Source of the DNA: Pontiella sp.
GTDB lineage: Bacteria > Verrucomicrobiota > Kiritimatiellia > Kiritimatiellales > Pontiellaceae
Assembly: GCA_037132875.1 (NCBI GenBank)
Contig: JBAHZU010000146.1
Location: 926-64,925, forward strand
Direction: 5' to 3'
Length of the DNA stretch: 64,000 bases
Under the pieces are notes generated by a model. The model was not told where the DNA came from and ran no database searches. It saw only the letters and a program-made list of their open reading frames with translations. The position numbers and the translations under genes are program-made. Positions within the stretch are counted from its first letter, which is position 1, and every line of letters begins with the position of its first letter. Of this stretch, positions 38,299 to 45,482 are shown in pieces.

Positions 38299-38462
38299 CT
38301 AAAAAATGCAGTGGCCCAGTGGGTCGTCGATCCGAGATGCGTGGGGGCCGACTCCGAGGGGCTCAACCTGAAGGAGAAAGGTAGGAAACTAAAATCAGAC
38401 GAAAGCACGTCGTTTATTGGTTAAATCTCCATGTTCTTCCTTTCTTCAGCTTTTTATTGGAT
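38299..38462 (+). repeat. Dispersed ~160-nt non-coding element, copy 1 (candidate structured RNA or MITE)
   Basis: Homologous to 45328-45482: CTAAAAAATG, GGCC.AGT.GGTCG, CTCCGAGGGGCTCAA, GTTTATTG.TTAAA, TTTTTAT.GGAT. Confidence 0.8.
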
Positions 38463-38464
38463 CA

Positions 38465-39070
38465 TTATTCGAGTTCATCGCGAAGATGTCGGATTTCCTG
38501 AATCAAGCGTTCCTTCACCCGATTCTTCAGGCGATAGACCGAATTTTCTTTCAGATCGAGCTCGGCCGCAATCTCTTCAACATTTTTGCCCTTCAGGGTA
38601 AGCCGAAACGCATCAACTGCTTTGCCAGAGAATAGGGGTTCAATATTTTCCAGAGCCAGATTGGTTAGGTGAATTTCCCATTCTCGTTCGGCAATCTGGT
38701 CGATTTCTGGCAGACGGATTGCCTTGAGATAGGTTAGCGTATCATCCTGTCCTGCTCGTTCCAGACGCTTGGCCTCGCGGGTGCGCTTGCGAATGAAATC
38801 GGTGACACAGTTTTTGGTAACGGTACTGAGCCAGCTGCGGAAGCGATTAATTTTTTCGTAATCCATTTTTGGCAGGCTGTTCCAGAGATTAATCAGTACC
38901 TGCTGGAGGATATCTTCCGTATCGTGTTCGGAAATATTCATGCTGCGAATAATGGCATAAATATAACGGCGGTAAACCTGTACAAATTCCTCCCAGGACT
39001 GCTCGTCCTGTTGATTCTGCACGCGTTGAATTAATGATGCTCGGGTTTGGTATTGGTCTTCTGCCGCCAC
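38465..39070 (-). CDS. ECF sigma-70 factor (long N-terminus, kinase-associated type)
   Basis: TRASLIQRV...SWEEFV..Y, DTEDILQQV, FRSWL..VTKN, region 4 EIAAEL....VY..KNRV. GTG start. Confidence 0.9.
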   Translation of the reverse strand: MAAEDQYQTRASLIQRVQNQQDEQSWEEFVQVYRRYIYAIIRSMNISEHDTEDILQQVLINLWNSLPKMDYEKINRFRSWLSTVTKNCVTDFIRKRTREAKRLERAGQDDTLTYLKAIRLPEIDQIAEREWEIHLTNLALENIEPLFSGKAVDAFRLTLKGKNVEEIAAELDLKENSVYRLKNRVKERLIQEIRHLRDELE

Positions 39071-39223
39071 GGTTCATTCCTCTGAGTTATGGAAAAATAC
39101 ACGCTATGGGCAGGGCTCTTAAAAAGCAAAATAAAAAGAGGGTGGGGGGAGTGGGATTGTACGTTGGAAGGAACTGAATCCCCCTTTATTTCGGAATAGA
39201 TGCGTTTTATATGCGTCATCGGG

Positions 39224-39252
39224 TTGACATTGATCCCGATTATTCATAAAAA
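39224..39252 (+). promoter_or_regulatory. Sigma70-type promoter of coaE-rho
   Basis: TTGACA-N17-TAAAAA. Confidence 0.55.
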
Positions 39253-39329
39253 CCCAACAGTTTCAGAGAGAAACAACTCCTCTTACTTCTGGGAATTCCT
39301 ATAAACAACTTTCCATTCCAGCTATTTTC

Positions 39330-39947
39330 ATGTCGGGTTTAAAACGTAATGCAATTGTGATCGGGGTAACCGGTGGGATTGCCTGCGGAAAATCGGAGGT
39401 GGGTCGGATTCTCGAAAAGATGGCCTTTTCAGTGTGCGATGCCGATCGCGTGGCACACGCTCTCTTGGAGAAGGGATCCGTCGTGTTCGGTAAAGTTGTT
39501 GAACATTTTGGGGAACAAATTCTTACGGAAGAAGGCGAAATATCGCGTCCGGTTCTTGGAAAAATCGTATTTGAAGATTCTCAGCAACTTAAGCAGTTGA
39601 ATGCGTTGATGCATCCGGCTGTTCGAGCCGTGCTGAGCCAATGGATCGAACATATGCGAGGCGAAGGAAAATCATTGGCGATTCTGTTGCCGCTGCTCTT
39701 TGAAAGCGGCATGCAGGATCTGGAATGGGATGCAGTGATTTGTGTTTCCAGTTCGGAAAACGAAGTTTTCCAACGATTGGAAAAACGAGGACTCCGTCCT
39801 GAAGAGGCTGAACAGAGAGTTCGCTCCCAGATGCCGTTGGCTGAAAAAGAAAGTCGGGCAGATCATGTGCTTCCAAATCGTGGAACGCTGGCAGAACTGA
39901 AGTTGGTGGTGCGGAAAACCGTGGATACCATCATGCAAGAAAGGTAA
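39330..39947 (+). CDS. coaE: Dephospho-CoA kinase
   Basis: [31 protein letters not shown]. Confidence 0.95.
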
Positions 39948-44091: not shown

Positions 44092-44174
44092 GTTCTCCCG
44101 TGAATACCATCCCAGTTTTTTACAGACCTAGGAAAAAAGAAAGGCAAAACTTCCAATGACTGGAAAAGGCACCT

Positions 44175-44897
44175 ATGGTGATCACCATGATTTTACAGGG
44201 TAAACGGGCTTTGGTTACGGGCGGTGCGGTGCGGATTGGGCGTGCCATCACAGAAGCACTTCAGGCGGAAGGAGCTGAGGTGGTGGTTCACTATCTTAGT
44301 TCTGGCGAAGAGGCGGCGGCACTTTCTCCCTATACGATACAAGGGAATCTTTTGTCGGCCGATGATTGCGCTCGGATGATTGAGCAGTCTGGGCCGTTGG
44401 ATGTTCTGGTGAATAACGCATCTCTTTTTACGAAAGATCGGTTGGCGGATGGTTTTCCGGAGCGGGTATACCGAGAGTTTCAGGTGAATCTTTTTGCACC
44501 CATGGAGCTGACGCGTCTCTTTGCGGCGCAAACGGAGCAGGGGGCGGTCATTAATCTGTTGGATCGCCGGATTCGGGCCAATGACTCCTCGGCACTTTCT
44601 TATTCAATCACGAAGAAGGGGCTTGAAGAGCTCACCAAATTATCGGCGTTGGATCTTGCGCCGAGCATTCGTGTGAATGCGGTTGCGCCTGGCCCCATTC
44701 TTCCGCCGCCGGGGGATACGGGGGAACATTTTGCCGAGCGGGCGGGCCGGGTTCCTTTGGCATTCTTTCCAACCCCTGAAAATATTGCGGAAGCCGCGCT
44801 TTTTTTGCTCAAAGCGGACTATTGCACGGGACAGGTTATTTATGTGGATGGCGGGCAGCATTTGCTCGGAAATGGTGTTTTTGATCAAGGTGTATAG
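44175..44897 (+). CDS. SDR oxidoreductase, pteridine reductase / FolM-like
   Basis: TGGAVRIG, VVVHY, NNAS, YSITK, NAVAPG; directly upstream of folB. Confidence 0.85.
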   Translation: MVITMILQGKRALVTGGAVRIGRAITEALQAEGAEVVVHYLSSGEEAAALSPYTIQGNLLSADDCARMIEQSGPLDVLVNNASLFTKDRLADGFPERVYREFQVNLFAPMELTRLFAAQTEQGAVINLLDRRIRANDSSALSYSITKKGLEELTKLSALDLAPSIRVNAVAPGPILPPPGDTGEHFAERAGRVPLAFFPTPENIAEAALFLLKADYCTGQVIYVDGGQHLLGNGVFDQGV

Positions 44898-44977
44898 GCG
44901 GCGGTGCCGTAAATTTTGAAGAATGATTTCCGATGGCCGATTTTATCGATCTGCGACGGGGTCAATAAGGAGATGGT

Positions 44978-45325
44978 ATGGATAAAATTTTTATCAGAGA
45001 GTTGGCCCTGCGTTGCATTATAGGGATCTATCCGGAAGAACGTCGTGAAAAGCAGGACATTGTGATCAATGTCGAAATGCACACGGACCTACGTACGGCT
45101 GGGCGTTCGGACGACTTGAACGATACGGTGGATTATAAGTCGATTAAGAAGGCCATTCTCAAACTGGTTGAAGAGAGTTCATTTCAGTTGATCGAATCGT
45201 TAGCCGAAGAGATCGCAGATATTGCGTTAGCGAATGAAAAGGTTGAGACGGTTGTGATTACGATTGATAAGCCCGGTGCTCTTCGGTTCGCGAAAGCCTC
45301 GGCCGTCGAAATTACTCGTCCATAA
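44978..45325 (+). CDS. folB: Dihydroneopterin aldolase
   Basis: IIGIYPEER, SDDLNDTVDY, LIESLAE, IDKPGA. Confidence 0.95.
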   Translation: MDKIFIRELALRCIIGIYPEERREKQDIVINVEMHTDLRTAGRSDDLNDTVDYKSIKKAILKLVEESSFQLIESLAEEIADIALANEKVETVVITIDKPGALRFAKASAVEITRP

Positions 45326-45327
45326 TT

Positions 45328-45482
45328 CTAAAAAATGAAGCGGCCAAGTTGGTCGCAGCAACGAGATTGGAGTCCTAACGGCGTAGATGCCTGCTCCGAG
45401 GGGCTCAATCCAAAATAGATGAAAGGGCCGTTGTTTATTGATTAAACCTCGGTGTTATTCATTACTACTGTTTTTATCGGAT
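45328..45482 (+). repeat. Dispersed ~160-nt non-coding element, copy 2
   Basis: Homologous to 38299-38462; starts 3 nt after the folB stop. Confidence 0.8.

Follow-up and report, generated by a model that had tools for sequence, protein, structure and literature searches.

Do the two similar intergenic blocks that lie about 7 kb apart in a 64-kb stretch of DNA from a Pontiella species (the whole sequence analyzed here, hereafter the window) represent a structured RNA, a 3'-UTR element or a non-autonomous mobile element, the three options put forward in the initial annotation?

Two homologous blocks between convergent genes

The two blocks, denoted copies A and B, and the adjacent features are as follows.

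36158..38287, plus strand: Ser/Thr protein kinase gene, upstream of copy A
38296..38462, plus strand: repeat copy A, 167 nt, long form, occupying nearly the entire kinase/sigma spacer
38465..39070, minus strand: gene for an ECF-type sigma factor, which converges on the kinase gene and has its stop codon 2 nt from the end of A
44978..45325, plus strand: folB (dihydroneopterin aldolase), upstream of copy B
45325..45482, plus strand: repeat copy B, 158 nt, long form, the first base of which is the final base of the folB stop codon
45562..45586, no strand assigned: A-tract/hairpin/T-tract terminator, separate, between B and accA and outside the repeat
45605..46573, minus strand: accA, convergent with folB

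Both left ends given in the initial annotation have to be shifted 3 nt to the left (to 38296 for A and 45325 for B), and the right ends stand. As had been noticed, the blocks start close to stop codons within convergent gene pairs: A starts 8 nt past the kinase stop codon (38285-38287), between the kinase and ECF sigma genes, where it is the sole sequence, and B, located between folB and accA, shares its first base with the end of the folB stop codon (45323-45325). A MAFFT alignment and a blastn comparison bear out the ordered blocks with intervening indels that had been described as common to both stretches. The two copies are homologous (blastn E 1.3e-12, rounded to E 1e-12), with ~81% identity over the aligned columns, the large indels being set aside. 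The 15-nt perfect block among the shared ones is, by our own calculation, about what chance yields at 77-81% identity over 160 nt, for which the expected longest run is ~14 nt. An nhmmer search detects no third copy in the window.

Absence of coding capacity and of Rfam matches

Two readings of this pair can be regarded as effectively refuted, namely that the blocks are decayed fragments of a coding sequence, or that they are duplicated attachment sites flanking an inserted island. The former draws on the +2 frame of A, which is open for 44 codons and closed near its end; the same frame is closed early in B, and stops interrupt every other frame of both copies, so that, as reported initially, no reading frame is shared. 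A comparison of the element translations with 5.8 billion proteins produced 205 candidates, none of which scored. A search of 185,579 species genomes for the pattern CTCCGAGGGGCTCAA-N(18-48)-GTTTATTG (23 bases) retrieved a single match, which is located inside a coding gene of a member of the Pirellulaceae and might be taken to point to a coding origin as well. This match was rejected as a family member and attributed to chance given that only the 23 pattern bases are common, with 4/24 identity between them, and that ~0.5 chance matches are expected. As for attachment sites, A and B are indeed direct repeats 7 kb apart, but the 7 kb between them consists of core genes that follow the same order in Pontiella agarivorans, and this conserved order shows that the segment is not an island.

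The inability of the initial annotation to assign the blocks to a known RNA family is upheld by an Rfam search of the 64-kb window, with zero matches at the gathering score; at E<=10, only terminator-like or chance matches outside the element appear. A scan of viral contigs returned either zero matches or chance ones in G+C-rich phage DNA.

Copies C and D and the architecture of the family

A scan of metagenomes combined with nhmmer identified two more copies, C and D, in marine metagenome contigs and in unrelated contexts (loci L094 and L047; E 1e-22 to 1e-54). A plasmid BLAST search with copy D gave zero matches. The four elements are solitary, with lengths of 167 nt (A), 158 nt (B), 233 nt (C) and 128 nt (D) and a G+C content of 47-54%. 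In D, the ends form a terminal inverted repeat with 19/21 matches (ATCCTAAAAAATGCAGTTGCC aligned with reverse-complemented GGCAACTGCGTTTTATAGGAT). Copy C shares these termini and amounts to D with the addition of a 105-nt internal hairpin module (233 vs 128 nt). The interior is an imperfect palindrome as well, so that either strand folds into a single long hairpin. The nine differences between C and D include five at unpaired positions, two that make up a compensatory T-A/G-C swap, and one that converts C-G to U-G; 47/48 pairs are kept. The intact short form is ~128 nt long, with ~21-bp terminal inverted repeats 5'-(AT)CCTAAAAAATGCAGTTGCC ... GGCAACTGCGTTTTATAGG(AT)-3', and the long form contains an extra, variable hairpin module within the right arm. 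Compared with C, A and B show 78-82% identity and internal deletions; they are long forms that have lost internal segments and whose termini have decayed. The relevant features in the window are the following.

38296..38316, plus strand: left terminal inverted repeat of A, ATCCTAAAAAATGCAGTGGCC, differing from the C/D terminus at 1 of 19 positions
38365..38452, plus strand: internal hairpin module of A, arms AACCTGAAGGAGAAAGGTAG and CTTCCTTTCTTCAGCTT, enclosing hairpin 2 (see below) and followed by a T-run, terminator-like
38447..38462, plus strand: right end of A, CAGCTTTTTATTGGAT, complementary at 12/16 positions to the left one, with which it pairs in the predicted fold
45325..45345, plus strand: left terminal inverted repeat of B, ATTCTAAAAAATGAAGCGGCC, differing from the C/D terminus at 4 of 19 positions
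45365..45410, plus strand: central stem-loop of the family, GATTGGAGTCCT ... GGGGCTCAATC, kept in B, with the invariant CTCCGAGGGGCTCAA inside; a deletion has removed the left arm from A
45468..45482, plus strand: right end of B, CTGTTTTTATCGGAT, complementary at ~10/15 positions to the left one

Two deletions are present in A, one that removes 13 nt of the left arm of the central stem and another of ~30 nt that includes the inner right arm; in B, the primary fold-back has lost its right arm and the module its left half. Copies A, B and D are each located just 3' of a same-strand gene. In the metagenome contigs, copy C adjoins a truncated gene or a chimeric contig; the neighbor of copy D is a PEP-CTERM/DUF1566 gene, which is uninformative on the taxonomy of the host of D.

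Copy number and empty orthologous sites

In hydrothermal-vent and sediment metagenomes, the element is present at ~5-16x the depth of unique flanks (summed element depth ~104 vs 6.3 in run X1 and ~20 vs 4.4 in run X2), these ratios being metagenome-derived so that several host species may be mixed in them. The 128-nt element is covered at 80-100% identity by 27 contigs in run X1 and 10 in run X2, with many different loose ends. The family is multi-copy.

The comparison of orthologous loci proposed in the initial annotation shows that both the A and the B sites are empty in the sampled relatives. In P. agarivorans, the gene order is the same (kinase, sigma, coaE, rho, NTP-transferase, nfeD, SDR, folB, accA), and the spacers, 3 nt for kinase/sigma and 107 nt for folB/accA, are without the element. 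Other Pontiellaceae share this gene order. The folB/accA spacers of three further relatives (205, 74 and 51 nt) are also without it and, like that of P. agarivorans, are unrelated in sequence, and in a contig from a vent metagenome, 6 nt separate the kinase stop codon from the sigma stop codon. Altogether, ~100 kb of DNA from relatives contains zero copies. Given that these relatives are other species and their spacers are too diverged, the exact sequence of the empty site is not reconstructable. The metagenome contigs include no empty alleles of loci C and D. As filled and empty versions of one site with nearly the same sequence were not encountered, we infer the movement of the element rather than observe it.

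Folding and local hairpins

The initial annotation emphasized two local hairpins, which map as follows.

38311..38327, plus strand: hairpin 1 in A, GTGGCCC-AGT-GGGTCGT, 7 pairs of which 3 are G-U; the orphaned left arm of the family fold-back
38412-38426, plus strand: hairpin 2 in A, inside the internal hairpin module
45341..45357, plus strand: hairpin 1 in B, GCGGCCA-AGT-TGGTCGC, 7 pairs of which 1 is G-U
45433..45447, plus strand: hairpin 2 in B, GTTTA-TTGAT-TAAAC, unpaired in C and absent from D

Both hairpins pair in A and B as described; however, hairpin 1 contains 2-3 mismatches in C and D, and hairpin 2 is absent or unpaired in these copies, so that neither is confirmed as a feature of the family. 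Over the four copies, covariation stays within the range of the shuffle controls; 82% of the hairpin 1 cells are paired, and 105-136/500 shuffles match its covariation. The structure that appears to be really conserved, according to the predicted folds, is the whole-element fold-back built on the terminal inverted repeats. The plus strand of D is predicted to form a single hairpin of -64.1 kcal/mol (z -10.9; 0/200 shuffles are as stable), and the minus strand one of -58.6 kcal/mol (z -8.3). A covariance model of the fold-back retrieves nothing further from the window or from the loci of the relatives. In B, a cmsearch aligned hairpin 2 (GTTTATTGNTTAAA) as if the right terminus were repeated inside the element; the local alignment had p ~0.16-0.27 against shuffles, and this idea was therefore dropped.

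These observations bear on the hypothesis that the plus-strand RNA serves the upstream gene, as a terminator, 3' stabilizer or RNase target, or else is a small RNA. The preference of the initial annotation for the plus strand as the RNA holds weakly: its fold is the more stable one in 4/4 copies (plus/minus strand, in kcal/mol: A, -47.2/-39.9; B, -50.2/-32.2; C, -89.7/-82.9; D, -64.1/-58.6), and in B, z is -2.6 on the plus strand and -0.1 on the minus strand. The location of A, B and D behind same-strand genes, the filling by A alone of the gap between two convergent genes, and the stem and T-run at the plus-strand end of the element are compatible with such a role, and so are the compensatory or wobble-compatible changes that distinguish A from B in hairpin 1, C from D in the long stem and A from C in the module stem. 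Nevertheless, a functional structured RNA or 3'-UTR element appears fairly unlikely and is not retained as the primary explanation because the same 3' UTRs are without the element in every sampled relative, C and D do not preserve the local hairpins, covariation stays within the range of shuffles, and A, in which the central stem is lost, is no more stable than its shuffled versions (z +0.18). Furthermore, a simple terminator scan finds none within A or B, the separate, strong terminator downstream of B is outside the repeat, and Rfam yields no family. A structured RNA could also be an exaptation of a mobile repeat and hence does not fully exclude a MITE-like origin.

A portable 3'-end module is likewise considered unlikely. 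Under this model, the plus-strand RNA hairpin would have been recruited as a terminator or stabilizer and preferentially kept behind stop codons in the orientation of the upstream gene, and the A/B sub-lineage would then have re-evolved a local hairpin after the loss of the fold-back partner; the basis for the latter step is two pair-creating changes common to A and B and one compensatory swap between them.

Flanks, target duplication and the putative partner transposase

Copies A, B and D are flanked by AT on both sides, and C by AA/AT; AT is self-reverse-complementary, and the flanking AT could be a piece of the inverted repeat. Metagenome contigs that reach one end of the element carry AT, TT or TTCAA/TTGAA there, and the left flanks (AT, GAA, AAA) are without a fixed motif. 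No autonomous element with the same termini was detected in the window or in 130 loci. About 130 nt from copy D, there is a decayed fragment of an IS91-like Y2 transposase with the motif HTFGEYLGFHPH (Pfam Y2_Tnp, E 0.014, below the cut-off).

This fragment, together with the lack of a clear target duplication, the tolerance of G-T pairs in a hairpin that spans the entire element, and the preference of REP elements for convergent intergenic spacers (PMC3184786), would be compatible with a single-strand hairpin element that is moved by an HUH/tyrosine-type transposase (REP/RAYT-like, IS200/IS605-derived or IS91-related) rather than with a DDE-type MITE. Such a mechanism seems very unlikely given that the 21-bp inverted repeat extends to the extreme ends of the element, whereas the ends of IS200/IS605 and IS91 are not mutual inverted repeats, and that REP units are 20-40 nt long and G+C-rich, in contrast to the 128-233 nt and 47-54% G+C found here. 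The Y2 match itself is weak, and its adjacency to D may reflect a junk-rich region.

A probable MITE-like fold-back repeat

The option of a non-autonomous mobile element, the third of those raised initially, is supported by the empty orthologous sites, the copies in unrelated contexts, the 19/21 inverted repeat combined with a single hairpin, and the multiple copies in metagenomes. Bacterial MITEs are defined as small (generally <200 bp, up to ~400 bp) elements with terminal inverted repeats and no transposase gene that occupy intergenic locations and form a long RNA stem-loop (PMC3184786). The family described here resembles them in size, terminal inverted repeats, non-coding sequence without a transposase gene, dispersed copies, a long stem-loop, and filled as opposed to empty sites. 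Most probably, A and B represent old copies, shortened by internal deletions, of a MITE-like, non-autonomous, non-coding fold-back repeat. A target-site duplication at the flanks and an autonomous insertion sequence with matching termini would also be expected of a MITE. Weighing against the assignment are the ambiguous AT flanks, the negative search for such an autonomous element in the window and 130 loci, the zero copies in ~100 kb of DNA from relatives, and the single chance match among 185,579 species genomes.

In the scenario suggested by this assignment, a transposase encoded elsewhere would recognize the inverted termini and insert copies into short A/T-rich spacers. Two such insertions would have occurred just behind the kinase and folB stop codons, after the split from the sampled Pontiellaceae, and parts of the palindrome would have been lost since then, with concomitant decay of the termini. 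Given this loss and decay, A and B are probably immobile relics. Given their location, they are most likely co-transcribed with the kinase gene and folB and lie within the 3' UTRs, in which case their residual hairpins and T-runs could end or stabilize the transcripts. The T-runs are at 38451-38455 and 45471-45475 on the plus strand and at 38301-38306 and 45330-45335 on the minus strand.

The repeats appear to constitute a new family, here in a genome of Kiritimatiellota (Pontiellaceae), although elements of this kind are ordinary in bacteria; a full-text literature search found no paper that mentions both Kiritimatiellota and MITEs. The MITE-like assignment accounts for two conserved non-coding blocks that were hard to place and averts their annotation as a novel riboswitch or sRNA. 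It also documents such a family for the Kiritimatiellota (Pontiellaceae) and for hydrothermal-vent and marine-sediment communities, a result of modest biological value. Recent insertion would have expanded a convergent gene junction of 3 nt to a structured spacer of 177 nt. Should the element prove to end or stabilize transcripts, it would be a further example of 3'-end signals provided by mobile repeats. It might also serve as a strain marker for the uncultured bacteria that host it.

Comparison with known repeats

Palindromes derived from IS200/IS605 differ from the present element in that they possess different subterminal hairpins and no terminal inverted repeat and are inserted 3' of a fixed tetra- or pentanucleotide. 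REP/BIME repeats form hairpins and favor spacers between convergent genes, as seen here, and REP elements can stabilize the upstream mRNA (PMC3184786). However, REP units are often clustered and RAYT-mobilized as well as short and G+C-rich (20-40 nt), whereas the element is 4-6x longer, solitary and of moderate G+C content, with long terminal inverted repeats, and so does not qualify as a REP.

The short form, which is 128 nt long and palindromic throughout, is similar to ERIC/IRU of enterobacteria (imperfect palindromes of ~127 bp), the likeness being architectural only. ERIC/IRU sequences also reside in transcribed intergenic regions next to stop codons and include size variants with internal insertions. 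RNA-level effects of ERIC on the neighboring mRNA have been proposed. The host phylum is different, and experiments have documented how many ERIC copies there are and what effects their orientation has.

The typical target duplication of bcr1 is TTTAT, which is not seen at the present element, and the hosts are unrelated. By description, bcr1 (Bacillus cereus group; PMC3184786), a MITE-like repeat of ~150 nt with independent RNA stem-loops, resembles the two-hairpin copy C. Correia and Tc1/IS630-type MITEs duplicate TA, whereas the flanks found here are AT or TT(C/G)AA-like. In other respects, bacterial MITEs (among them Correia, RUP, Nezha and Chunjie; PMC3184786) are like this family of 128-233 nt elements: they contain terminal inverted repeats and no transposase gene, are intergenic, dispersed and multi-copy, generate size variants by internal deletion or insertion, are predicted to form a long RNA stem-loop, and vary in presence and absence between related genomes.

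Two homologous copies within convergent gene pairs

The two look-alike non-coding stretches (copies A and B) lie just 3' of the stop codons of a kinase gene and folB within convergent gene pairs, as proposed in the initial annotation, the coordinates of which are correct to within 3 nt.

Copies A and B and their neighbours in the window
36158-38287, plus strand: Ser/Thr kinase gene, upstream of A
38296-38462, plus strand: copy A, 167 nt
38465-39070, minus strand: ECF sigma factor gene, convergent with the kinase gene, on the other side of A
44978-45325, plus strand: folB, upstream of B
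45325-45482, plus strand: copy B, 158 nt
45562-45586: strong terminator (A-tract/hairpin/T-tract), separate from B and ~80 nt beyond it
45605-46573, minus strand: accA, convergent with folB, on the other side of B

Copy A starts 8 nt past the kinase stop codon, leaving 2 nt between its other end and the stop codon of the sigma factor gene; the first base of B is the final base of the folB stop codon. A blastn comparison of the two copies yields an E-value of 1.3e-12, and when the pair is aligned with a gap-tolerant method, 81% of the aligned columns are identical. The MAFFT alignment recovers the ordered shared blocks described previously, with a 13-nt and a ~21-nt indel. An nhmmer search of the 64-kb window started with this alignment detects no copy beyond these two. 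All reading frames of both copies contain stops except frame +2 of A, which is open for 44 codons and closes early in B, so that there is indeed no common reading frame. Likewise, no known RNA family fits: Rfam 15 gives no matches at the gathering score in the whole window and, at E<=10, only one meaningless microRNA-model match inside A and B. The copies look neither coding-like nor like members of a known RNA family.

Between B and the terminator, positions 45513-45552 contain two small hairpins (ATCCCC..GGGGTGAT and GTGATCC..GGATCAC); relatives have in the same place a hairpin of other sequence (TTTCACAC..GTGTGAAA and TTTCATAC..GTATGAAA), and these may represent a structural signal that is conserved 3' of folB or accA. 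Elsewhere in the window, the Rho factor (39950-41638, 562 aa) carries ~150 residues N-terminal to the Rho_N domain, a long extension compared with the E. coli protein (~420 aa). Three tandem 135-nt units (6045-6449; 100/93/81% identity) lie within a minus-strand ORF (5745-6728) that encodes a 327-aa repeat-containing protein without a Pfam match.

Empty sites in relatives

The AccA protein is 88-91% identical to proteins of Pontiellaceae (Pontiella agarivorans, Pontiellaceae bacterium B12227 and B1224, and several MAGs), which places the window in this family (Kiritimatiellota), and a Logan contig from run SRR27947418 matches the window with 99.95% identity across 6 kb, copy B included. P. agarivorans shares the gene order of the window (kinase, sigma, coaE, rho, NTP-transferase, nfeD, SDR, folB, accA). 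There, only 3 nt separate the kinase and sigma genes, compared to 177 nt in the window; the folB/accA spacer, 107 nt compared to 279 nt, is unlike the element. In three further relatives this latter spacer measures 205, 74 and 51 nt, in each case without the element. A 197-nt hydrothermal-vent contig that runs from the kinase 3' end to the sigma factor 3' end, with only CGGGCT separating the stop codons, is a second empty site for A. Thus, the comparison of orthologous loci suggested in the initial annotation finds both sites empty in relatives, and A and B appear to be insertions, not conserved UTRs. The possibility that the two direct repeats serve as attachment sites of an island was rejected because the intervening 7 kb consist of core genes in conserved order.

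The accA region of the closest relative (L003) is not syntenic with the window: downstream of accA come a 1-kb spacer and, in place of folB, a gene for a 1735-aa cadherin-repeat protein, and the contig carries transposase genes, IS4-like (DDE_Tnp_1) and IS110-family, at L003:1-751 and L003:4079-5008.

Further family members and architecture of the element

A 23-base pattern scanned against 185,579 species genomes produced a sole match, inside a Pirellulaceae coding gene (L002:2466-4007, a 513-aa ORF of a MAG, ..EEWNWISEGLKQRITALNLFIDD..), which was rejected as a chance match unrelated to the element. The 18-base pattern GCCNNCTCCGAGGGGCTCAA occurs at 119 loci in JGI metagenome contigs, 2 of which are real by nhmmer.

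Additional copies, from marine metagenome contigs
L094:584-816: copy C, 233 nt
L047:411-538, minus strand: copy D, 128 nt (recovered again in ENA contig L129, 99.5% identity)

The ends of D (ATCCTAAAAAATGCAGTTGCC / GGCAACTGCGTTTTATAGGAT) are inverted repeats at 19/21 positions, and all 128 nt fold into one hairpin (-64.1 kcal/mol, z -10.9, on the plus strand; -58.6 kcal/mol, z -8.3, on the minus strand). Copy C shares 93% identity with D and has an additional 105-nt hairpin module (233 vs 128 nt) in the right arm, between GGCAAC and TGCG, with a perfect 15-bp stem (AGAAATGAAGAAAAC/GTTTTCTTCATTTCT). A and B (78% and 82% identical to C, respectively) are long forms that have undergone internal deletions: A lacks 13 nt from the left arm of the central stem and ~30 nt including the inner right arm, and B lacks the right arm together with the module's left half. 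Terminal complementarity has decayed in both (~12/16 in A, ~10/15 in B).

Copy C adjoins a gene fragment (L094:276-585) that covers no more of the 293-position PEP-utilizers_C profile than positions 197-289. In other metagenome contigs the intact gene continues at L094:579-585, which means that either a rearrangement took place at C or the 1-kb contig is chimeric.

Secondary structure and covariation

Local hairpins proposed in A and B
Hairpin 1: A 38311-38327; B 45341-45357
Hairpin 2: A 38412-38426; B 45433-45447

Although well paired in A and B, neither hairpin is a feature of the family. The hairpin-1 segment GTTGCCAAGTTTGCCGC has 2-3 mismatches in C and D, where its partner is instead the fold-back's right arm. 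Hairpin 2 does not pair in C, and D lacks it altogether. Across the four copies, 82% of hairpin-1 cells are paired, and its covariation measures are equalled in 105-136 of 500 shuffles, so that the covariation noted for it earlier is, over the family, no stronger than in the shuffled controls.

The conservation of structure at the family level is real. With the module removed, C differs from D at 9 positions, 5 of them unpaired (unpaired positions make up 25%); two others, at positions 31 and 98, together exchange T-A for G-C and so compensate each other, another turns C-G into U-G, and 47/48 pairs are kept. A second compensatory swap, read off the alignment, affects the module stem (T-A in C, G-C in A). 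Taken whole, A is no more stably folded than its shuffled controls (z +0.18), and B modestly more so (z -2.6). The earlier proposal that the plus strand is the RNA stands insofar as this strand folds better in 4/4 copies; the bias is compatible with selection on a plus-strand transcript, but also with DNA hairpins that tolerate G-T pairs.

By default, the element is taken to have no function for the host. A and B should be co-transcribed with the upstream genes because both are immediately 3' of plus-strand genes, and their predicted stems and T-runs (CAGCUUUUUAUUGG in A, CUGUUUUUAUCGG in B) could act in transcript termination or protection. The left end of the minus strand has a weak hairpin followed by UUUUUU; a simple terminator scan makes no call there or for the stems and T-runs of A and B. 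An RNA-level role, which would be compatible with a mobile origin, seems unlikely.

Copy number in metagenomes

The D locus is present in Logan contigs from hydrothermal-vent runs (X1, X3-X5) and sediment runs (X2, X6, X7). Alignment to the 128-nt element alone identifies 27 contigs in X1 (6 at >=99% identity, 7 at 95-99%, 7 at 90-95% and 7 at <90%) and 10 in X2, many with differing loose ends, that is, differing flanks; several have the long-form junction but differing module sequences. Summed element depth is ~104 in X1 and ~20 in X2, compared to 6.3 and 4.4 for the adjoining unique gene; set against the unique sequence that flanks the C locus, it is ~100 compared to 13.7. The family is thus multi-copy, at roughly 5-16 per genome equivalent, a range in which several host species may be pooled.

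A different, far more abundant repeat with many differing flanks is located at L047:1345-1456 (summed contig depth ~426 in X1 and ~160 in X2, where the unique gene next to it has ~6 and ~4).

A probable MITE-like fold-back repeat

Published hallmarks of bacterial MITEs include small size, a non-coding sequence, terminal inverted repeats, a stem-loop that spans the whole element, multiple dispersed copies, indel size variants and presence/absence at orthologous sites (PMC3184786). The A-D family shows these features, its size variants arising via internal deletion or insertion. Because of this correspondence, A and B are most probably relics of a MITE-like fold-back repeat that would have moved in behind the kinase and folB stop codons in the lineage of the window.

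As a candidate target duplication, copies A, B and D have AT on either side, which is itself palindromic; other element ends have TT or TTCAA/TTGAA-like flanks. No transposase with the element's termini was found in the window or in the 130 loci examined. Mobilisation by an HUH-type enzyme, suggested by the decayed IS91-like fragment that adjoins D, is quite improbable: the Pfam match of this fragment is weak, and the end-to-end inverted repeat (19/21 in D) favours a classical cut-and-paste element. The fragment itself (L047:1-400 and L047:1550-1670; Y2 transposase, HTFGEYLGFHPH motif, Y2_Tnp E 0.014) has its 3' part repeated at the opposite contig end with 80% identity, and this region is also multi-copy in X1.

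A full-text literature search returned no paper naming both Kiritimatiellota and MITEs, and the element has neither an Rfam nor a plasmid match. Its description is useful for annotation and provides a small example, unsurprising to a specialist, of repeats remodelling convergent gene junctions. Closest to the 128-nt short form are ERIC-type elements, ~127-bp imperfect palindromes, a comparison of architecture only.
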